A stretch of DNA of 64,000 nt from Acutalibacteraceae bacterium (GTDB lineage Bacteria; Bacillota; Clostridia; Oscillospirales; Acutalibacteraceae): the NCBI GenBank assembly GCA_045540715.1, contig JAZQHT010000014.1, positions 55,761 through 119,760 of the forward strand. Reading direction: 5' to 3'. Of this stretch, positions 33,701 to 64,000 are shown piece by piece. A model generated the notes under the pieces. That model had not been told where the DNA came from, ran no database searches, and worked only from the letters and a program-made list of their open reading frames with translations. The number at the start of each line of letters is the position of its first letter. Position 1 is the first letter of the stretch. Made by a program: the position numbers and the translations under genes.

Positions 33701-33762
33701 GAAAACACCGACCTTTTTGTTTTATTATATCATAAAACCATAAATCAAACAAGGCGTATCAT

Positions 33763-33860
33763 ATTTCATAGCGAAGCTATTTCACATTACGAAGTAATAT
33801 TTCACTCGCCGTAAGACAAATTTCATTGAAAAGACGACTTGTCGAAACAAGTCGTTTTTT
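33763..33860 (+). repeat. array of four ATTTCA + short-hairpin modules ending in a terminator-like hairpin
   Basis: ATTTCA at 33763, 33779, 33799 and 33820. Hairpins TAGC-GAA-GCTA (contains GCGAAGC), ATTAC-GAA-GTAAT and ACGACTTGT-CGAA-ACAAGTCGT followed by TTTTTT. Confidence 0.6.
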
Positions 33861-34077: not shown

Positions 34078-34162
34078 TGGTGGGAGCGGGTGGATTCGAA
34101 CCACCGAAGTCGAAGACAACAGATTTACAGTCTGCCCCCTTTGGCCACTCGGGAACACTCCC
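34078..34162 (-). tRNA. tRNA-Tyr (GTA)
   Basis: Hand-folded GGGAGTGTTCCCGAGTGGCCAAAGGGGGCAGACTGTAAATCTGTTGTCTTCGACTTCGGTGGTTCGAATCCACCCGCTCCCACCA. Long variable arm, encoded CCA. Confidence 0.9.
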
Positions 34163-34183
34163 ATATTAAGTTTAAAAAAGCAA

Positions 34184-34259
34184 TGGAGCTGGTGGACGGA
34201 CTCGAACCCCCGACCTGCTGATTACAAATCAGCTGCTCTACCAACTGAGCTACACCAGC
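34184..34259 (-). tRNA. tRNA-Thr (TGT)
   Basis: GCTGGTGTAGCTCAGTTGGTAGAGCAGCTGATTTGTAATCAGCAGGTCGGGGGTTCGAGTCCGTCCACCAGCTCCA. Cloverleaf fits, encoded CCA. Confidence 0.9.
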
Positions 34260-50884: not shown

Positions 50885-50922
50885 AACAAAAAAGCAAGTA
50901 GCGTGTGCTACTTGCTTTTTTG
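50885..50922 (-). terminator. intrinsic terminator ending T-box operon 1
   Basis: aagcaagtag-cgtgtg-ctacttgctt stem flanked by A- and T-runs. Confidence 0.8.
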
Positions 50923-50956
50923 TAATTGTTTTATGCTTTTTGTAAACTTTTTAAAG

Positions 50957-51769
50957 CTATTCTTTTATGCCAAAAAGTTTTTTGGCGTTTTCTCCTAAGA
51001 TTTTGCGGAAAGCTATTTCTGAAAGGTTTAAAGACATAAAGTAATCAATCTCTTCTTTTGGGTTCCACATTGGGTAATCAGTACCAAAAAGAACGCGGTC
51101 TTCACCATAAGCATTTATAAGTTCTAATGCCTTTTGCTTATCTTTAATAAAAGGAAAGCTTGAAGAACAGTCAACGTAAAAATTATTGTGCTTTGGTAAA
51201 ACCTTAATTGCTTCATCCCAAATTGAATAGCCGCCAAAGTGTGCGCCAATAACCTGCAAATCGGTATATGTTTCTAAAATAGGTATTAGGCGATTGGGGT
51301 TTGAATAATCGTAACGCTTATCGCCTGTGTGAAGCAAAAGAACAAGCCCCTCTTTTTCCATAAGCTCGTAAATTTTTAAGCATCTGTAATCGTCTAATTT
51401 AAAGGCCTGAATATCGGGATGAAGCTTAACGCCCTTAAGTCCTAGTTCTTTTAAATGAGCAATATCGCCTTTTATATCTTCGCTTTCAGGGTGAAGTGTG
51501 CCAAGTCCCAACATTTTACCGTTAGATTCTGCCACTTCACGGGCAATAAATTCGTTTATGCTTTTAACTTGTTTTGGGGTTGTTGCAACAGACTGCACTA
51601 TCATAAAATCTATGCCGGCTTTTTCGGCTTCGGTGTGCAAATCAGATACCGTTCCCTTGCAAGCAAACACCTGATTATAAAAGGTGCTTGTGCCCATAAC
51701 CGCCCTTTCGGCAATTTTTTCGGGGTAAATGTGGCAATGGGCATCTATAACAAAATAATCTTTAACCAT
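50957..51769 (-). CDS. amidohydrolase-2 (COG2159-type TIM-barrel metal-dependent hydrolase/decarboxylase) family protein
   Basis: 270 aa. VIDAHCHIYPEKIA HxH motif. Confidence 0.7.
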   Translation of the reverse strand: MVKDYFVIDAHCHIYPEKIAERAVMGTSTFYNQVFACKGTVSDLHTEAEKAGIDFMIVQSVATTPKQVKSINEFIAREVAESNGKMLGLGTLHPESEDIKGDIAHLKELGLKGVKLHPDIQAFKLDDYRCLKIYELMEKEGLVLLLHTGDKRYDYSNPNRLIPILETYTDLQVIGAHFGGYSIWDEAIKVLPKHNNFYVDCSSSFPFIKDKQKALELINAYGEDRVLFGTDYPMWNPKEEIDYFMSLNLSEIAFRKILGENAKKLFGIKE

Positions 51770-51771
51770 TT

Positions 51772-54267
51772 TTAATCCTTACAATATTTCTTTTGGGCGT
51801 CTTCACGCATTTTATATTTTAAAATTTTACCCGCCGCGTTCATAGGAAATGCATCAACAAAATCGATATATTTTGGCACCTTATGACGAGCCATATTAGC
51901 CGCAATATATTCCTTCATTTCTTGTTCGGTCATGGTTTCGCCTTTCTTTAAGATAACACAAGCGCAAATTTCTTCGCCATATTGCTTATCGGGTACGCCG
52001 ATAACCTGAACGTCGGAAACTTTATTGTTGGTATAAATAAATTCTTCAATTTCTTTGGGGTAAATATTTTCGCCACCGCGAATAATCATATCTTTTAAGC
52101 GGCCTGTAATTAGATATGTGCCGTCAGGTCTTCTGGCTGCTAGGTCGCCTGTATGAAGCCAACCGTCTTCATCTATTGCTTCGCTTGTGGCATCGGGCAT
52201 TTTATAATAACCCTTCATAATGTTATAACCACGTGCAACAAATTCGCCGTTTTCCATATCTTTACAGTCTTCGCCGGTTTCGGGGTTAATAACCTTGCAC
52301 TCAACGTTAGCAAAAGCAGAACCAACCGTTTCTGTTCTAACCTCTAAAGAATCTGTAAATGAACTCATTGTGCAACCGGGACTTGCTTCTGTTTGCCCAT
52401 AAACCGAAACAATTTGTTTCATATTCATAACTTCGGTGGCTTTTTTCATAAGTTCAGCCGGGCAGTTAGCACCTGCCATAATACCCGTTCTGATATAAGA
52501 AAAGTCGGTCTTTTCAAAATCAGGGTGTTGCATCATTGCAATAAACATTGTTGGAACACCGTTAAAGCAGGTAATATGCTCGTTATGAACGCAAGAAAGT
52601 GCAGGGCCCGGTGAAAAATACGGTAGTGGGTACATAGTAGCGCCGTGTGTCATAGATGCGGTCATAGAAAGCACCATACCAAAGCAGTGGAACATTGGAA
52701 CTTGAATCATCATCCTATCTGCCGTTGATAAATCCATATGGTCGCCAATATATTTACCGTTATTAACAACGTTATAATGTGTTAACATAACACCTTTAGG
52801 AAAACCGGTAGTACCTGAAGTGTATTGCATATTGCATACGTCGTTTGGTTTTACAAGGGCGGCTAAACGAAGCACCTCTTCACGAGGAACTTGATTCGAC
52901 ATATTAACAGCTTCATCCCAAGTCATACAACCCTTTTGTTTAAAGCCACAGGTAATAACGTTGCGTAAAAAGGGCAAACGTTTTGAGTGTAATTTTGCGG
53001 TGGGTTTTTTATTTTCAAGCTCGGGACAAAGTTCAGCAATGATTTTACCGTAATGGGTATCTTTTGAGCCCTCTGTCATAATTAGTGTGTGAGTATCTGA
53101 CTGACGAAGCAAATATTCGGCTTCGTGAATTTTATAGGCGGTATTAACAGTAACTAAAACCGCGCCAATTTTTGTTGTTGCCCAAAAAGCAATATACCAT
53201 TGTGGAACGTTTGAGGCCCAAACCGCAACGTGAGAACCAGGGCGAACACCCATTGCAATTAAAGCGCGGGCAAATTCGTCAACGTCGTCTCTAAATTCGC
53301 TGTAAGTACGGGTATAATCTAAGGTTGTGTATTTAAAACAGTATTGGTCGGGGAATTCTTCAACCATTTTATCTAATACACCCGAGAAGGTGTAATCAAT
53401 AAGCAAGTCTTTTTTCCAAATAAACTTACCTGTTCTATCGGTATTATAATAAAGTGTTTTTTCGGCAGCTTTTGTATCTGCAAACTGCTTCATATAGTTT
53501 AAAAATTGCGAATAGATAATCTCCATATCGTCAATTTCTGCACACCAGGTTGGGTCCCAAATTAATGAAATAAAGCCGTCGTAATTTACAGAACGCAAAG
53601 CGCTCATCATATCGGAAATAGGAATATTGCCTTCTCCTGCTAAACATCTTTCAATTTCGCCGTCCACCATTTTTGCATCGTAAAAATGAACGTGCTTAAC
53701 GTAAGCACCCAAATTTTTAATAACAATTTTTGGTTCTTCTTTGCCATATAAATAAGCAGTGGCAAAATTCCAAAGGGCTCCTAAATTGTCAGAAGCAAAG
53801 GTGCCTAATACCTCGCAAAGTTTTGCGGTTAAGCTATAAAGCCCTGCTGTTTCAATAAGTAGTGTAATATTTGTTTCTTCGGCAATTGGTAGTGCTTTTT
53901 CAATAAAGCTAATTACGTTTTTATTAGCGTTTTCAAAATCGCTACTATCTTCTGCACGCAAACGAATATAAGGAATTTTTAAGTTCTTTGCAATTTCAAT
54001 GCAAGAAGCTGTTTCTTCTAATGCAACATCTACGTTTTTTGCAATATCTGCAACCACGTCAATACAAGCAAGTGTTAATTTTTGTTCATATAGTTTTCTA
54101 ACGGTTTTAGCGGCGGTATAATCGTGAAAAGCCCCGTCTTTATCGGTAAAGAGGCGGTTTTTTATATTATGAAGTTCAATGCCGTCAAACTTTAAATCTT
54201 TAGCAATAGCACAAAATTCTTCAAAATTATTGTTGTGCCAACCCTTTGTCGAAAAGGAAAATTTCAT
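51772..54267 (-). CDS. fusion protein: xylose-isomerase-like TIM barrel (sugar phosphate isomerase/epimerase family) + AMP-forming acyl-CoA ligase
   Basis: 831 aa. The N-terminal roughly 270 aa (MKFSFSTKGWHNNNFEEF...GIELHN...) is AP_endonuc_2-like. The C-terminal part carries MQYTSGTTGFPKGV, WLHTGDLA and GRLKDMIIRGGENIYPKEIEE. Confidence 0.75.
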   Translation of the reverse strand: MKFSFSTKGWHNNNFEEFCAIAKDLKFDGIELHNIKNRLFTDKDGAFHDYTAAKTVRKLYEQKLTLACIDVVADIAKNVDVALEETASCIEIAKNLKIPYIRLRAEDSSDFENANKNVISFIEKALPIAEETNITLLIETAGLYSLTAKLCEVLGTFASDNLGALWNFATAYLYGKEEPKIVIKNLGAYVKHVHFYDAKMVDGEIERCLAGEGNIPISDMMSALRSVNYDGFISLIWDPTWCAEIDDMEIIYSQFLNYMKQFADTKAAEKTLYYNTDRTGKFIWKKDLLIDYTFSGVLDKMVEEFPDQYCFKYTTLDYTRTYSEFRDDVDEFARALIAMGVRPGSHVAVWASNVPQWYIAFWATTKIGAVLVTVNTAYKIHEAEYLLRQSDTHTLIMTEGSKDTHYGKIIAELCPELENKKPTAKLHSKRLPFLRNVITCGFKQKGCMTWDEAVNMSNQVPREEVLRLAALVKPNDVCNMQYTSGTTGFPKGVMLTHYNVVNNGKYIGDHMDLSTADRMMIQVPMFHCFGMVLSMTASMTHGATMYPLPYFSPGPALSCVHNEHITCFNGVPTMFIAMMQHPDFEKTDFSYIRTGIMAGANCPAELMKKATEVMNMKQIVSVYGQTEASPGCTMSSFTDSLEVRTETVGSAFANVECKVINPETGEDCKDMENGEFVARGYNIMKGYYKMPDATSEAIDEDGWLHTGDLAARRPDGTYLITGRLKDMIIRGGENIYPKEIEEFIYTNNKVSDVQVIGVPDKQYGEEICACVILKKGETMTEQEMKEYIAANMARHKVPKYIDFVDAFPMNAAGKILKYKMREDAQKKYCKD

Positions 54268-54270
54268 TTA

Positions 54271-55641
54271 TTACGCCTCCTCGTAAACAATCTTGTTAAC
54301 AGCGCTAATATATGCGCGAATACCTGCTCCTAAAATATCGGTTGAAATACCTTGACCGGAATATAATTTTCCGTCTTTGCGAAGCTTAATAATAGCAGAG
54401 CCCATTGCTCCTTTACCTTCTGTAACTGCTTGAATTTGAAAATCGTCAAGCTCGTAGTGTGTGCCCAAAATTTTGTCAATAGCTTTAAATGCGGCGTCAA
54501 TAGGACCGTCGCCAATTTCAACAGCCGAAATATCTTCACCGTTTTTATTTAAAGTAATTTGTGCAGAAGAAGAAATAATGTTACCGCTATTAATAATAAA
54601 GTTAACTAATTTATAAGTAGAAGGAACTTGAAGTGCAACAGAAGCGATAATGGCTTCTAATTCTTTTGAGCCAACCGTTTTCTTTTCTGCGGTGCGCTTA
54701 AATTCTTCATAAACTTTAGCGTTATCTTCTTCGGTTAAGTCATAACCTAAAAGCATAACTGCTTTTTTAACGGCGGCTTCATCGTCTTTTTCGTCCAAAC
54801 GAATAACGTTGTCTTCTTGTGATATATTGCTACCGTTTACTCCGCCTTTATTATCTGTAACCCAGTTAATTTGATTAATAATTCTGCTTAACTGTGTATA
54901 TTTAATGTTACTGCTATAACCATTACGGTTACCGCTGTTTTTAACCATTTCCGAGAAGGTATATAAATCGGGGGCTGAACCTTTAACACAGGTTTTAACG
55001 CTATCAGCACCACTCATTACTGCCATAATGCTTTTTGCAATAGAAAGGCCATTTTTATCTTCGCAATAAACACCAACAGAAATATTGGTTTCGGCTTTAA
55101 TTTCTTTAATAAACGCAGCAAATTCGTCGGGCATCATTTCTGCAAAATTGTCACAGATTGTTACGCTTGTAGCCCCCGCATTTTCTGCAGTTTTTATTGC
55201 ATTAATTAAAAAGGCTTTGTCGGCTCTTGTGGCATCCATTGCAAAAAATTCAACGTCTAAAACCTTTTCTTTTGCTGCGGCAATTACCTTTTCAATAACC
55301 GAAAGCATTTTATCAGGTTTTTTGTGGCAGGTATATTCCATACCAACAGTAGATACAGGAAGTGCCACCTTTATTCTTTTATTTTTTGCTGTTACTAGTG
55401 CTTCTGCCGCTTTTTCTACGGTATCAACACTTGTTGCAGTAACACTAATGGTAGTGTTTTTTACAAAAGAACAAATTGTTTTAATGCATAAAATATCAAT
55501 TCGATCATTTTCAATTTCGGGTAATTCTAATATATCAACATTAAGCATGCTCAGTTTTCTGGCAATCTCTAATCTTTCTTTAAAAGAAAATGCGTTTTCT
55601 TTAAAGGTTAGTGTTGCATCACATAGTTTAATGTTTTTCAT
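54271..55641 (-). CDS. LeuA (2-isopropylmalate/homocitrate synthase)-like protein with degenerate active site and an intact C-terminal LeuA regulatory domain
   Basis: CDATLTFKEN replaces DTTLRDGEQ, and VYCEDKNGL replaces HxHNDlG. The C-terminus GDGPIDAAFKAI...GKGAMGSAIIKL...GQGISTDILGAGIRAYISAVNK is LeuA_dimer-like. ATG 55641 follows SD AAGGAGAAA. Confidence 0.7.
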   Translation of the reverse strand: MKNIKLCDATLTFKENAFSFKERLEIARKLSMLNVDILELPEIENDRIDILCIKTICSFVKNTTISVTATSVDTVEKAAEALVTAKNKRIKVALPVSTVGMEYTCHKKPDKMLSVIEKVIAAAKEKVLDVEFFAMDATRADKAFLINAIKTAENAGATSVTICDNFAEMMPDEFAAFIKEIKAETNISVGVYCEDKNGLSIAKSIMAVMSGADSVKTCVKGSAPDLYTFSEMVKNSGNRNGYSSNIKYTQLSRIINQINWVTDNKGGVNGSNISQEDNVIRLDEKDDEAAVKKAVMLLGYDLTEEDNAKVYEEFKRTAEKKTVGSKELEAIIASVALQVPSTYKLVNFIINSGNIISSSAQITLNKNGEDISAVEIGDGPIDAAFKAIDKILGTHYELDDFQIQAVTEGKGAMGSAIIKLRKDGKLYSGQGISTDILGAGIRAYISAVNKIVYEEA

Positions 55642-55663: not shown

Positions 55664-55940
55664 TAAAAAAGCCCCTGAAACCACAAAATATGGTTTCAGG
55701 GACGAAAAATCTTTTCGCGGTACCACCCTGATTACCGTTAAAAATAACGGTCACTCTGCGGTGTTCTAACAAACACCCTGCCATGATAACGGGGCAAGCC
55801 GTAGCCACTTACTGTTATTTCAGCGACTCTGCTCCGGAACGAGACTTTCATTTAATTAGGTATTGGCTCACACCGGCCGCCAACTCTCTGAAACTCTAGC
55901 TTTAAACGAAATAATTCCTTCATTGCATTTATTAAATTAT
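55664..55940 (-). promoter_or_regulatory. T-box riboswitch leader 1 (hand-assigned specifier CUC = Leu)
   Basis: Minus strand elements: K-turn UGC-AAU-GA.../...GGA-GCA; AG bulge plus distal loop AGAGAGUUGGCGGCCGGUGUGAGCCAA; specifier loop GAAAGU-CUC-G next to helix GGAA/UUCC (CUC = 55841..55843); T-box AAUCAGGGUGGUACCGCG (55716..55733); terminator CCCCUGAAACCA...UGGUUUCAGGGG + U-run (55664..55702). Confidence 0.85.
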
Positions 55941-55945
55941 AAAAA

Positions 55946-55974
55946 ATTTTAACACCAAAAATTCCGTTTGTCAA
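55946..55974 (-). promoter_or_regulatory. sigma-A promoter of T-box operon 1
   Basis: Minus strand: TTGACA, 17 nt, TAAAAT. Confidence 0.7.
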
Positions 55975-55991
55975 TACTAAATTAAATATTT

Positions 55992-56333
55992 TTATTCTTC
56001 TGGTATATAAAGCTCCATATCTACAGCTTTGCCATCTTCAATTGTGATTTTCCAATAATCATTAAAATCGCCAAACATATCATAATAGGGATAAATAACA
56101 TACCCTTCTTCTAATTCGTTGGCTGGCAAGTTTGGTTCTTTTGCTTTGGGTTCTCCAAATTTTTCTTCAAGTTCTACTGCAGACTTACCTATTACGTTTT
56201 TCTCCAATAAATCTCCAGAATCATCAAAAATGTGCATACCCAAAGTAACAATACTCGCAATTAAAACTAAGCCTAAAACTATAAATAATGCAATTATGAT
56301 TGTTTTTGATTTAGTTTGTTTTTTATCTTGCAT
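55992..56333 (-). CDS. small membrane-anchored hypothetical protein
   Basis: 113 aa. N-terminal TM, acidic C-terminal domain. Confidence 0.5.
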   Translation of the reverse strand: MQDKKQTKSKTIIIALFIVLGLVLIASIVTLGMHIFDDSGDLLEKNVIGKSAVELEEKFGEPKAKEPNLPANELEEGYVIYPYYDMFGDFNDYWKITIEDGKAVDMELYIPEE

Positions 56334-60158: not shown

Positions 60159-60821
60159 TTATATAACTGTTTTTTGTAACTTTAACGGAACAAGATTTTC
60201 TATTTTTTCTTTTAGTTCGTCATAAAGTTCTTCTTTAACTGTTGTAAAGGCAATTTTTAAGCCGGTTTTTTCTGACAGCTCTTTTGCAATTTCTACACTG
60301 CTTAAAAGGTCTTCTTTTGTGGTTTCTTTACCCAAATTAGAATTATTAATAAGCCCTGTAAAGCGCATTTTAGAAGCAATTTCAATTTCGTTTAATACTT
60401 CTATTAAACTTTCAGTATCTCTTGTAAGCGGTCTAAAAGTATTAATTACAAACAACATTTCGTAATCGTTTTCTTGCTTTAGCGCTTCACTTAAACGCCC
60501 AATAGCAAGTGCTCCTCTATCGTCGCCGCCAACGTCTATAATTGCTTTCAAGGTTTTATCGTGAATTAAACTATAAACGTCGCTTGGCATTGAGGGTATA
60601 TCAACGTTACTGTTAGCATATTCTGAACAAATAAGCCTAATGCCGTCTTTTTTGAAAATTTCTTCGCTGTCTTTGGTTCTAAAATATGGGTTAACTATAT
60701 CCAGGTCGGCAATTGCTACGTTATCGTACTGTTTTTTCAGATCGTACGCCAAGTTTACAGCGATATTGGTTTTGCCGCTGCCATAGTGCCCCATAATAAG
60801 TGTAATTCTTTTATATTTCAT
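60159..60821 (-). CDS. P-loop NTPase (SIMIBI-class, MinD/CooC/G3E-like), function unknown
   Basis: 220 aa. Walker A GHYGSGKT, and DVGGDD, a possible Walker B/switch. 2-nt gap to the upstream gene. Confidence 0.6.
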   Translation of the reverse strand: MKYKRITLIMGHYGSGKTNIAVNLAYDLKKQYDNVAIADLDIVNPYFRTKDSEEIFKKDGIRLICSEYANSNVDIPSMPSDVYSLIHDKTLKAIIDVGGDDRGALAIGRLSEALKQENDYEMLFVINTFRPLTRDTESLIEVLNEIEIASKMRFTGLINNSNLGKETTKEDLLSSVEIAKELSEKTGLKIAFTTVKEELYDELKEKIENLVPLKLQKTVI

Positions 60822-60823
60822 AA

Positions 60824-63112
60824 TTATAACAGATTTCTTTGAATTTTGCCGCTTACAGTTTTTGGTAAGCTCTCTTTAAATTCAACAATTCTAGGATATT
60901 TATAAGGTGCGGTTTTTTCTTTAACGTAGGTTTGAATTTCTTTTTTAAGTTCATCGGTGCCTGCTGTTCCTTTAACTAGAACAACACTCGCTTTAACAAT
61001 TTGTCCGCGAACTTCATCGGGAACTGCAGAAACACCGCATTCAAGTACGTAAGGAAGTTCCATAATAACGCTTTCAATTTCAAATGGGCCAATGCGGTAG
61101 CCTGAAGACTTAATAACGTCGTCAACGCGGCCAACGTACCAATAAAATCCGTCTTCATCGCGCCAAGCGGTATCGCCTGTGTGATAATAGCCGTCGTGCC
61201 AAACTTCGTCGGTCTTTTCTTTGTCGTTATAATAACCGGTAAATAATCCCGGTGGAACACCCTCTTTAAGGTTAATTACAATTTCGCCGGCTTCACCAGA
61301 AGGTGTTGGGTTACCATCTGCATCCATAAGTTCAACGTTATAAATTGGAGCAGATTTACCCATAGAGCCAATTTTATGACTAGCGCCTACCATATTACCA
61401 ATAATCATGGTGCTTTCGGTTTGACCAAAGCCCTCGATAATTTGAAGTCCCGTTGCTTTTTCAAATTGACGGTAAACTTCGGGGTTTAGCGCTTCACCCG
61501 CGGTTGTCATATGCTTAACAGATGAAAAATCGTAATTATTAATATCTTGCTTAACCATCATTCTAAGCATTGTTGGAGGTGCACAGAAGGTGGTTATTTT
61601 ATATTTAGAGAACATTGGTAAAATATCGGCCGCATCAAAACGGTCAAAGTCGTAAACAAAGATTGCGCCTTCGCATAACCATTGTCCGTACATTTTACCC
61701 CACATTGCTTTTGCCCAACCTGTATCTGAAATGGTAAAGTGAAGACCATTTGGATCAACGTTGTGCCAATATCTTGCAGTGTGGAAATGTCCTAATGGGT
61801 ATTTATAGTTATGAACTGCAATTTTGGGATAGCCGCTTGTCCCCGAAGTAAAATACATAAGCATTGTATCTTCGCCACAAGGTGCATCTTTAGTTCTATT
61901 ATAGTGGGTTGAATATAAGGTATATTCTTCGTCAAAGTTACGCCAACCGTCTCTTTGTTTACCAACTATAATTTTATTAATCATACCATCGTAATTTTTT
62001 AGTGCTTCATCAACCTTATCGGCAGCACCGTCTTCACTGGTACAAATAATTGAGGTAATACCTGCTGAACGAAAACGATATTCATAATCGTGTTCTTTAA
62101 GTTGGCTTGTTGCAGGAATTGCAATAGCGCCTAGTTTATTAAGGCCTAACATACTAAACCAGAACTGATAGTGACGTTTAAGTACAAGTAAAACTCTGTC
62201 GCCTTTCTTTATACCTAAAGATTTAAAATAGTTAGCGCATTGGTTAGATGCCTTTTTCATATCTTTAAAGGTAAAACGACGTTCTTGCTTATCTTTAGAA
62301 ACGTGTAACATTGCAAGTTTATTAGGCTCTTTTGAAGCCATTTCGTCAATAAGGTCAAATGCAAAGTTAAATTTATCGGTGTTCTTAAACTCAATTTTTG
62401 TGGGAGTACCGTTTTCGTTTTCTTCCGTATCAATAAACTTACGATAAATTCTTTCTTCGGTATCTTTTAAACCTTTTGTATTTAAAGGCACTGCCTTTAC
62501 GGGTGTAAGTTCTGGAATTGGTTCGCCCGTTGGGTTTAAAACAATAGCATAGAAAATACAATCCTTACCGCCTGTTGCAATCATACCGTGAGGTGTATCA
62601 CTATCGAAATAAATGCTATCTCCGGGTCCTAAAATTTCTCTATGCTCGCCAATTTGAACAAGCAAGTTACCTTCAACAACAATATCGCACTCCTGACCTT
62701 CGTGGGTGGTTAGTTCAATATCTCTGTTTTCGGCAGTTTCGTCGTAAATGCTTCTAACGTAAAGGGGCTCTGCAATACGGTTTTGAAAAGAATAAGCTAG
62801 GTTAAAATATGTCATACCGTGTGCTTGAGCAATTTTTTGACCCTGTCCGTTTTTAGTAACGGTATAGCTTTTAAGTTTTGGGCTATAACCTTCGATAATA
62901 TCGGTTACGTTAACGCTTAATGCTAAGGCACAACGATAAATAAAGGCAAAGTTAAGATCACTCTTACCCTCTTCACAAAGCAAATATTCATCTACCGTAA
63001 CGCCTGTTTTTGCCGCCATTTCAGTTGGGGTAAGACCTTCAATTTCGCGAAGCTCTTTAATACGGCCGGCCATTTCCTTAATTTTAAAATCAAGTCCTGT
63101 AATTTGTTCCAT
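60824..63112 (-). CDS. three-domain fusion: XRE-type HTH + cupin + AMP-forming (medium-chain type) acyl-CoA synthetase
   Basis: 762 aa. HTH GLTPTEMAAKTGVTVDEYLLCEEGKSDL; cupin HEGQECDIVVEGNLLVQIGEHREILGPGDSIYFDSDTPHGM; synthetase [49 protein letters not shown] and PKTVSGKIQR. Confidence 0.8.
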   Translation of the reverse strand: MEQITGLDFKIKEMAGRIKELREIEGLTPTEMAAKTGVTVDEYLLCEEGKSDLNFAFIYRCALALSVNVTDIIEGYSPKLKSYTVTKNGQGQKIAQAHGMTYFNLAYSFQNRIAEPLYVRSIYDETAENRDIELTTHEGQECDIVVEGNLLVQIGEHREILGPGDSIYFDSDTPHGMIATGGKDCIFYAIVLNPTGEPIPELTPVKAVPLNTKGLKDTEERIYRKFIDTEENENGTPTKIEFKNTDKFNFAFDLIDEMASKEPNKLAMLHVSKDKQERRFTFKDMKKASNQCANYFKSLGIKKGDRVLLVLKRHYQFWFSMLGLNKLGAIAIPATSQLKEHDYEYRFRSAGITSIICTSEDGAADKVDEALKNYDGMINKIIVGKQRDGWRNFDEEYTLYSTHYNRTKDAPCGEDTMLMYFTSGTSGYPKIAVHNYKYPLGHFHTARYWHNVDPNGLHFTISDTGWAKAMWGKMYGQWLCEGAIFVYDFDRFDAADILPMFSKYKITTFCAPPTMLRMMVKQDINNYDFSSVKHMTTAGEALNPEVYRQFEKATGLQIIEGFGQTESTMIIGNMVGASHKIGSMGKSAPIYNVELMDADGNPTPSGEAGEIVINLKEGVPPGLFTGYYNDKEKTDEVWHDGYYHTGDTAWRDEDGFYWYVGRVDDVIKSSGYRIGPFEIESVIMELPYVLECGVSAVPDEVRGQIVKASVVLVKGTAGTDELKKEIQTYVKEKTAPYKYPRIVEFKESLPKTVSGKIQRNLL

Positions 63113-63506: not shown

Positions 63507-64000
63507 TTATAATTTATTTCTTTGGATTTTGCCGCTAATAGTTTTAGGTAATTCATCCTTAAATACCACAATTCTTGGGTATTTATAAGGAGCAGTGTGG
63601 CTTTTAACGTAGTCTTGAATTTCTTTTTTAAGTGCATCTGTGCCTTCTGTTCCCTTGGTTAAAACAATGCTTGCTTTAACAACCTGACCGCGAATTTCAT
63701 CGGGAGCGGCAGATACACCGCACTCTACAACGTAAGGAAGTTCCATAATAACGCTTTCAATTTCAAATGGGCCAATGCGGTATCCAGAAGATTTGATAAC
63801 GTCGTCAATACGGCTAACGTACCAGAAATATCCGTCTTCATCGCGCCAAGCGGTATCGCCTGTGTGATACATATTATCATAAACGGCATCGTCGGTTTTT
63901 TCTTTATCTAGATAATATTCTTTAAACAATCCGCAAGGAACACCATCTTTAAGTCTAACAACGATTTCGCCAACTTCACCAGTGGCCACCGGTTTGCCCT
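63507..64000 (-). CDS. AMP-forming acyl-CoA synthetase paralog, C-terminal part only (N-terminus beyond the right edge)
   Basis: The frame stays open to the window end (..[14 protein letters not shown]..). [38 protein letters not shown] and [10 protein letters not shown]. Very similar to the C-terminus of 60824..63112. Confidence 0.85.

Follow-up and report, generated by a model that had tools for sequence, protein, structure and literature searches.

The reverse strand of a 64,000-nucleotide stretch of an Acutalibacteraceae bacterium genome (contig JAZQHT010000014.1, positions 55,761 to 119,760; below, the window, whose own numbering is used throughout) encodes a homolog of the leucine-pathway enzyme LeuA with a disrupted active site. 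We use the working name psLeuA for this protein of 456 amino acids. Sequence comparison across its family gives good support to the view that psLeuA derives from bacterial 2-isopropylmalate synthase and is catalytically dead, a pseudoenzyme whose most conserved part is the regulatory domain and not the catalytic barrel as in LeuA. We consider it somewhat probable that psLeuA works as a non-catalytic, leucine-binding regulatory (or scaffold) subunit of a route from isovalerate to leucine, a proposal in which we infer the leucine binding, the complex, the inhibition and the isovalerate substrate. It would then be a regulatory paralogue of the pseudoenzyme kind, a kind already known, here derived from LeuA; this is the best-supported but unproven assignment.

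Domain structure and catalytic residues of psLeuA

The psLeuA open reading frame runs on the reverse strand from an ATG at 55641 to a TAA ending at 54271 and is preceded by an AAGGAG ribosome-binding site. Residues 1-225 (54967..55641) make up an HMGL-like TIM barrel without the Arg, the Asp, the HxH and the GERAGN of the enzyme. Residues 226-324 (54670..54966) are a shortened linker from which the general-base subdomain (HxSGIHQDG, PF22617) is deleted, and residues 325-456 with the stop codon (54271..54669) are the LeuA_dimer (allosteric) domain with the motifs GDGPIDAAF, AMG and GISTDI. Pfam matched the HMGL-like family PF00682 to residues 5-221 with 124 bits and LeuA_dimer PF08502 to residues 325-451 with 110.8 bits (profile positions 4-130 of 131). 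A first-pass annotation, made from the letters alone, had recognised a LeuA dimerisation/allosteric domain in the C-terminal 130 or so residues, and the match over 127 of the 131 profile positions bears this out. PF22617, the post-HMGL subdomain, found no match in psLeuA and was matched in two true LeuA-type proteins of a relative. On every NCBIfam model for LeuA, CimA or homocitrate synthase, psLeuA scored far below the cut-off: the best match was NF002086 (265.6 bits versus a cut-off of 532), and TIGR00973 gave 240 bits versus 599.

We compared psLeuA with Listeria LeuA (3ewb) in a HMMER alignment. Residues 7-16 of psLeuA (CDATLTFKEN) lie under DTTLRDGEQ, with T12 in the place of the substrate Arg and F13 in that of the metal Asp. 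Residues 191-199 (VYCEDKNGL) lie under sHcHdDlGm, and the two His are replaced by Y192 and E194. The first-pass annotation had read the same four substitutions from these two stretches, and the alignment places them exactly. The losses extend to the Gln equivalent to Q93 of methylthioalkylmalate synthase, MAMS (N16 in psLeuA), the Glu equivalent to E227 of MAMS (M135) and the substrate Thr (N165). In MAMS, the metal ligands are D90, H288 and H290, and R89, Q93, E227, T257, H388 and Y399 are further key residues; changes of R89, Q93 or H388 abolished activity, conservative changes at E227, T257, H388 and Y399 reduced it, and the catalytic residues are described as conserved in IPMS, the Arg being called invariant across DRE-TIM metallolyases (PMC11532901). 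We regard the catalytic set as required because of this mutagenesis, and psLeuA has each of these residues either replaced or removed.

The loss is a property of the whole family. Among 225 full-length members, none has an H-x-H in residues 166-225, two have an RDG within the first 30 residues, and none has an ER.GN motif. Of the 225, 224 have a deletion of the GERAGN loop, and in all of them the segment with the general-base His and the stacking Tyr (HxSGIHQDG) is missing. HxH, RDG, ER.GN and GIH were sought near the expected places in every member. This rules out ligands at shifted positions, a prospect that the annotation had itself raised, and the loss stands.

Predicting the structure of psLeuA alone, a check suggested at the outset, gave an HMGL-like barrel. 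The AlphaFold2 model, built with 39 relatives as input, has a mean pLDDT of 86.9, with values above 90 in the barrel and low values at residues 265-278, and the LeuA_dimer domain is modelled as a beta-beta-beta-alpha arrangement that occurs twice. Compared by Foldseek, the barrel model superimposes on the LeuA barrels 3rmj, 3ewb and 3eeg with a root-mean-square deviation of 1.8 Å. The best Foldseek matches of the model were MAMS (6e1j, at the top), M. tuberculosis LeuA (3hps, 1sr9 and the leucine-bound 3fig) and the same three LeuA structures.

Relatives of psLeuA occur in at least 580 GTDB species (pattern scan, one genome per species), almost all of them uncultured Acutalibacteraceae, Oscillospiraceae, Ruminococcus and 'Clostridia' of gut or rumen origin. 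When 50%-identity representatives were searched exhaustively with HMMER, about 120 full-length psLeuA clusters of 453-497 amino acids came up, down to 35% identity; true LeuAs (500-516 amino acids) ranked only below them. In a tree, the family is monophyletic, has a long stem and is nested inside short-form bacterial LeuA. Within the psLeuA family, mean pairwise identity reaches 0.667 in the regulatory domain, compared with 0.447 in the barrel and 0.379 in the linker; the same columns of six true LeuAs give 0.364, 0.441 and 0.326, in this order. The regulatory domain is thus more conserved than the barrel, the reverse of true LeuA, and therefore the constraint has moved from catalysis to the allosteric/dimerisation domain.

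Where the new constraints lie can be read from the family-specific invariants, which we defined as positions at least 90% conserved in the psLeuA family and not in LeuA. There are 34 of them. Eight fall in the barrel, mainly the MEY..K directly after strand 4, and 26 outside it, mostly within the regulatory domain or immediately ahead of it (ALQVP, ELDDFQI, KLR and NKIVYEE). By this count the regulatory domain has acquired new constraints, as a new interface would.

A separate observation concerns P0247, a LeuA homologue of 516 amino acids that branches beside the dead family in the tree. It keeps RDG and HxH, and its HxSGIHQDG stretch is swapped for unrelated sequence. P0247 may represent an intermediate, or else a partial loss that happened independently.

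The elements of the leucine pocket were kept. The two helix N-termini of the psLeuA regulatory domain read GDGPIDAAF and GISTDILGA and so preserve GxGPxDA and GxSTDI; G377, G379, P380, G431, S433 and D435 are at least 90% conserved in the 225-member family and common to true LeuA. G414, in the AMG motif, aligns with G462 of E. coli LeuA and is conserved in 224 of the 225 members. G462D of the E. coli enzyme is listed as a feedback-resistant variant (PMC12967937). In M. tuberculosis LeuA, the pocket for leucine is hydrophobic and lies at the dimer interface, and the leucine carboxylate has a helix N-terminus on either side (PMC11057210). At the level of motifs the leucine site of psLeuA thus looks intact, and psLeuA may well bind leucine. 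The pocket residues were mapped on E. coli LeuA, and leucine, as opposed to another amino acid or a 2-oxoacid, is the presumed ligand.

Operon, partner ligase and host metabolism

The psLeuA gene heads an operon on the reverse strand. A promoter-like TTGACA-17-TAAAAT with a TG extension lies at 55946..55974 (11 of 12 matches, a consensus match only) and is followed by a T-box leader at 55695..55932 (Rfam RF00230, 134.2 bits versus a gathering score of 93). Its specifier codon, read from the alignment, is CUC (Leu) at 55841-55843, then a G, and its terminator hairpin with T-run occupies 55671..55703 (a 15-bp stem, then TTTTTTATTT). All 52 orthologous leaders that could be aligned carry the CUC specifier. 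Three nucleotides after the psLeuA stop, a gene for an 831-amino-acid fusion protein begins (51772..54267, reverse strand; PF01261, PF00501 and PF13193). The setting described in the first-pass annotation, directly behind a Leu-type T-box and in front of an acyl-CoA-ligase fusion, is therefore correct on both sides. After a gap of 2 nucleotides comes the third gene, for a 270-amino-acid Amidohydro_2 protein (50957..51769, reverse strand; PF04909, 123.5 bits) that keeps the HxH/H/D motifs. Its nearest solved relatives are BB4693 and non-oxidative decarboxylases, and the gene was found in 52 of the 71 related loci with a readable region. A bidirectional terminator-like hairpin at 50886..50923 (17-bp stem, flanked by an A-run and a T-run) ends the operon.

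In the fusion protein, residues 1-265 or so form a TIM barrel of the xylose-isomerase-like type, and residues 290-831 or so an AMP-forming acyl-CoA ligase; its best NCBIfam match is PRK12583, with 648 bits. Across 72 orthologues, the TIM domain (53470-54267) keeps E139, H192, H194, D197 and E212 and varies at positions 167 (N/D/H/Q) and 236 (V/E/I), so that the canonical metal ligands are partly conserved. It also has an invariant N-terminal SFSTKGWH motif. A fold search with the TIM domain returned only generic sugar isomerase, epimerase and dehydratase relatives (Art22, AsbF, IolI, UlaE). The fusion gene follows psLeuA in 77 of 80 related loci, mostly after a gap of 0-12 nucleotides; in the remaining three, the sequence ends about 150-270 bases past psLeuA.

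We analysed the co-evolution of the operon proteins by comparing pairwise distance matrices from the 24 loci with all genes. Regression was used to remove the mean distance of two controls encoded in the operon upstream, namely the subunits of VOR (a 2-oxoacid:ferredoxin oxidoreductase) and the ParA-like protein. The branched-chain aminotransferase (BCAT) of that operon was left out of this mirror-tree control, its distances being distorted by paralogues. The partial Mantel correlation of psLeuA was 0.69 with the TIM domain (p = 0.0002), 0.36 with the ligase domain and 0.29 with the Amidohydro_2 protein, and the TIM domain correlated with its own fused ligase domain at 0.39. Bootstrap intervals for the differences between 0.69 and 0.29 and between 0.69 and 0.36 exclude 0. 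The Amidohydro_2 protein equals psLeuA and the TIM domain both in evolutionary rate and in how closely it follows the control; therefore the psLeuA-TIM excess is not merely better signal. Within the limits of a small sample and an indirect method, these values suggest that psLeuA and the TIM domain are specifically coupled, either functionally or physically.

The host genome (1.61 Mb, 97% complete) gives the operon its metabolic setting. A search of this 97%-complete assembly found no true LeuA, LeuB, LeuCD, IlvC or IlvD, and the classical branched-chain pathway is therefore absent from it. The only other HMGL-family gene encodes an oxaloacetate decarboxylase alpha subunit, and the only aconitase-family and Iso_dh-family genes encode a 640-amino-acid aconitase and an NADP isocitrate dehydrogenase. 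What the host does have is acyl-CoA synthetases behind T-boxes for Ile (AUC), Val (GUA) and Leu (CUC), together with VOR and BCAT. The operon upstream of psLeuA stands behind the Val (GUA) T-box and encodes an XRE-cupin-acyl-CoA synthetase, a ParA-like ATPase, four VOR subunits and a class IV aminotransferase. A third T-box, with an Ile (AUC) specifier, lies just past the right end of the window (L086 3093-3338) and precedes a paralogous XRE-cupin-acyl-CoA synthetase of 755 amino acids (L086 768-3035); each of the Ile, Val and Leu T-boxes of the cluster thus controls a ligase of its own. Three ligases, VOR and BCAT fit a reductive carboxylation of isobutyrate, 2-methylbutyrate and isovalerate, substrates suggested by the gene context. 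The carboxylation of isovalerate to leucine in ruminococci is long known and was described physiologically by Allison et al., according to the passage of PMC7356843 that cites this work.

We then surveyed 151 genomes of the order. A genome counted as having psLeuA if it gave a single full-length match with 316 bits or more, and as having true LeuA if it gave a split match in a frame of 500-550 amino acids. psLeuA was found in 33 genomes, true LeuA in 56 and both in none (Fisher p = 2e-8, uncorrected for phylogeny). The TIM::ligase fusion adjoins psLeuA in all 33. About 24 further genomes of the 151 have a fusion but no psLeuA. Identity of these fusions is 36-41% over the TIM domain and about 70-74% over the ligase domain, and true LeuA is also present in 13 of the genomes. 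We examined five of them; in four (G009, G034, G072 and G089), no psLeuA or amidohydrolase homologue was found beside the fusion, and in three a Leu (CUC) T-box precedes it (L089 7192-10042 in G009, L090 7121-9991 in G089 and L092 7048-9894 in G034). One psLeuA-less fusion with a CUC T-box stands in a genome with true LeuA. The ligase thus serves leucine supply independently of psLeuA, which is an addition restricted to lineages that lost LeuA.

The fifth genome examined, G077, has a different arrangement. Two intact LeuA/CimA-type genes lie directly upstream of the fusion (L088 9116-12252 and 5914-8481); both proteins consist of HMGL, HCS_D2 and LeuA_dimer domains and keep RDG, HxH and GIH. 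No T-box scored above the Rfam threshold at this locus. This order could be the arrangement from which psLeuA arose in place, and is possibly ancestral, although it is a single case.

Proposed role and its alternatives

The route that we propose begins with the ligase, the presumed catalytic subunit and partner of psLeuA, which most likely activates isovalerate to isovaleryl-CoA. VOR would carboxylate isovaleryl-CoA reductively to 2-oxoisocaproate, and the class IV aminotransferase would convert this to leucine. Control would be exerted at two levels. In the slower, transcriptional layer, uncharged tRNA-Leu would turn the operon on via the CUC T-box. In the other, free leucine would occupy the interface of the psLeuA dimer, lying between the N-termini of two LeuA_dimer helices, and the leucine-bound form would hold the TIM::ligase fusion less active, probably via contact with its N-terminal TIM domain. 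The regulatory domain, perhaps together with a remnant face of the barrel, would transmit the effect of leucine to the ligase. In LeuA itself, the regulatory domain of one chain packs on the TIM barrel of the other, and leucine inhibits by rigidifying or locking this contact (PMC9860122). The feedback module of the first enzyme of a lost de novo pathway would thus have been recycled onto the first enzyme of a salvage pathway.

The first-pass annotation had seen in psLeuA a pseudoenzyme re-used as a ligand sensor or scaffold. The two halves of this claim fare differently. The pseudoenzyme half is well supported by family-wide loss together with strong conservation. The sensor or scaffold half is consistent with the data but indirect: it draws on the constraint on the regulatory domain, the kept pocket motifs, the Leu T-box, the fixed pairing with the ligase and the co-evolution with the TIM domain.

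Several observations weigh against a regulatory subunit. First, the fusions that stand behind a Leu T-box without psLeuA, within the group of about 24 genomes, mean that the ligase works without it. Second, the barrel keeps part of its catalytic face: D8, T10, S97, D136, R139 and D164 are common to LeuA, and MEYxCHKKP is a motif specific to the family. A pure docking scaffold would not obviously need either of these, and a pure sensor role accounts neither for them nor for the TIM domain and the amidohydrolase. Third, phmmer searches with the regulatory domain and with the family profile did not reach 1sr9/3fig or the regulatory domain of Leptospira CMS. Fourth, isovalerate as the substrate of the ligase is taken from context alone, and the mirror-tree analysis comprises 24 related loci. 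Finally, a fusion of psLeuA to the ligase was absent among the best 120 of 1776 relatives of the TIM::ligase protein, all of 830-840 amino acids, a result that is uninformative rather than negative.

The barrel residues lead to one alternative, in which psLeuA is a new enzyme or a ligand-binding barrel. D8, T10, S97, D136, R139 and D164 would form a new, metal-independent site together with MEYxCHKKP. Alongside the xylose-isomerase-like domain and the amidohydrolase, the barrel would perform a reaction, so far undescribed, on a precursor of leucine such as an acyl-CoA or a 2-oxoacid. Conserved residues do persist at the C-terminal ends of strands 1, 4, 5 and 6, and the invariant family-specific motif M101-E102-Y103..K108 comes directly after strand 4. 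Most loci bring three TIM-barrel modules together, which is beyond the needs of a simple isovalerate activation, and reversible decarboxylases are among the relatives of the Amidohydro_2 protein. Nevertheless, we find this alternative unlikely. The barrel is the less conserved half of psLeuA; it holds 8 of the 34 family-specific invariants, and most of its conserved residues were inherited from LeuA. Strands 7 and 8, together with the general-base subdomain, made up half of the former active site and are variable or deleted in psLeuA. Moreover, the amidohydrolase is missing in some loci that reach several kilobases past the ligase (for example L066), and the TIM::ligase fusion works alone in other genomes.

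The regulatory domain allows another reading, namely that psLeuA is a purely structural partner: a dimerisation or stabilising scaffold, or an assembly factor, for the ligase or a ligase-oxidoreductase assembly, with no ligand and with pocket motifs retained for folding and dimer formation only. LeuA_dimer is, as its Pfam name says, also a dimerisation domain. The gene is fixed beside that of the ligase and co-evolves with the TIM domain of the latter, and the new invariants ALQVP, ELDDFQI and NKIVYEE resemble a new interface. On the other hand, the leucine pocket retains its elements, among them the glycine at which a change makes the E. coli enzyme lose feedback, the psLeuA gene stands strictly under a Leu T-box, and psLeuA descends from LeuA and not from a CimA-like enzyme. 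Taken as a set, pocket elements, Leu T-box and LeuA descent fit a retained leucine site better than chance, and we regard the purely structural role as quite doubtful.

A further scheme combines the dead barrel, the xylose-isomerase-like domain, the amidohydrolase and the ligase into a multi-TIM-barrel system with an undescribed chemistry leading to a leucine precursor. The psLeuA site would lie around MEYxCHKKP, and LeuA_dimer would supply leucine feedback. We look on this scheme as improbable and speculative.

Very improbable indeed is that psLeuA is still an isopropylmalate, citramalate or homocitrate synthase with shifted ligands, or else a decaying pseudogene: there is clear LeuA homology across both domains, and one source labels a relative 2-isopropylmalate synthase, but the motif search and the deleted general-base segment in the 225 members, the scores far under every NCBIfam cut-off and a genome without LeuB or LeuCD to use the product argue against an active synthase, and decay is ruled out by a frame intact in at least 580 species and a mean identity of 67% in the regulatory domain.

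Returning to the regulatory subunit, we compared psLeuA with known systems. Short-form LeuA (EC 2.3.3.13; TIGR00973/PRK00915) shares with it the HMGL-like TIM barrel, the LeuA_dimer domain and the leucine-pocket motifs, and the psLeuA family branches from inside LeuA; like LeuA, psLeuA heads a leucine-supply operon behind a Leu T-box. Unlike LeuA, it has the Arg, Asp, Gln, Glu, Thr and His-x-His substituted and the GERAGN loop and general-base subdomain deleted, is about 55 amino acids shorter, and occurs without leuBCD and never with true LeuA in the 151 genomes. HisZ, a histidyl-tRNA-synthetase paralogue that is catalytically inactive as a synthetase, is the closest analogue of the action proposed for psLeuA: a paralogue of an enzyme for the same amino acid regulates a different catalytic protein by end-product inhibition. 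HisZ mediates the inhibition by histidine of the catalytic HisG(S) in the short-form ATP phosphoribosyltransferase (PMC9734150). Fold and pathway are unrelated, HisZ also activates its partner, and in the case of psLeuA we predict a complex, a ligand and an effect on the partner. As in other pseudoenzyme subunits, psLeuA descends from an active enzyme, has lost its catalytic residues, is under purifying selection, and is encoded and, on indirect evidence, co-evolves with a catalytic partner.

Two structural matches offer further comparisons. MAMS of the Brassicaceae (6e1j) is likewise a LeuA re-purposed by loss of a module. There the regulatory domain disappeared and catalysis stayed (PMC11532901); psLeuA shows the opposite loss, having dropped catalysis and kept the regulatory domain. 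The DmpG/DmpF type of aldolase-dehydrogenase (1nvm, 4jn6) resembles the arrangement proposed here in that an HMGL-like barrel with a C-terminal communication domain is tightly complexed with a CoA-dependent partner enzyme. DmpG, unlike psLeuA, is catalytically active and metal-dependent and has no allosteric amino-acid domain, and its partner is an acylating dehydrogenase, whereas the neighbour of psLeuA is an AMP-forming ligase.

It has been known since the 1960s that branched-chain volatile fatty acids are required by cellulolytic ruminococci and by many Oscillospirales of the gut, and that these bacteria carboxylate isovalerate to leucine. We did not find the genes and regulation of this route defined in the searchable literature, and our literature search returned no paper that describes these gene clusters or a LeuA without catalysis. 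The locus offers a complete gene set for the route: three T-box-gated ligases (Ile, Val, Leu), one VOR and one aminotransferase. If our proposal is true, the de novo pathway was lost and its first enzyme, stripped of catalysis, was kept for its allosteric domain; psLeuA would then be a bacterial metabolic pseudoenzyme comparable to HisZ and derived from LeuA. Members of the family are annotated as 'regulatory domain-containing protein', as 'hypothetical' or, wrongly, as '2-isopropylmalate synthase'. Metabolic reconstructions that count psLeuA as LeuA would mis-score leucine prototrophy, and the family spans hundreds of uncultured species.

Neighbouring genes in the window

The synthetases of the Val and Ile operons (60824-63112 and 63507-64000) have an N-terminal XRE helix-turn-helix and a cupin domain, an add-on unlike that of the Leu ligase. 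Between the synthetase and oxidoreductase genes lies the gene for a 220-amino-acid ParA/MinD-like P-loop protein (60159-60821), found in 29 of the 80 related loci and kept in nearly all those that extend as far as the oxidoreductase cluster. The aminotransferase gene is followed, at 56485-56463, by a terminator-like hairpin. Between the Val and Leu operons, a gene with its own promoter-like site (56389-56362) encodes a 113-amino-acid protein with an N-terminal membrane helix (55992-56333). Farther away in the window, a match to the Gut-1 RNA (63 bits) at 33758-33828 adjoins tRNA genes at 34081-34259.

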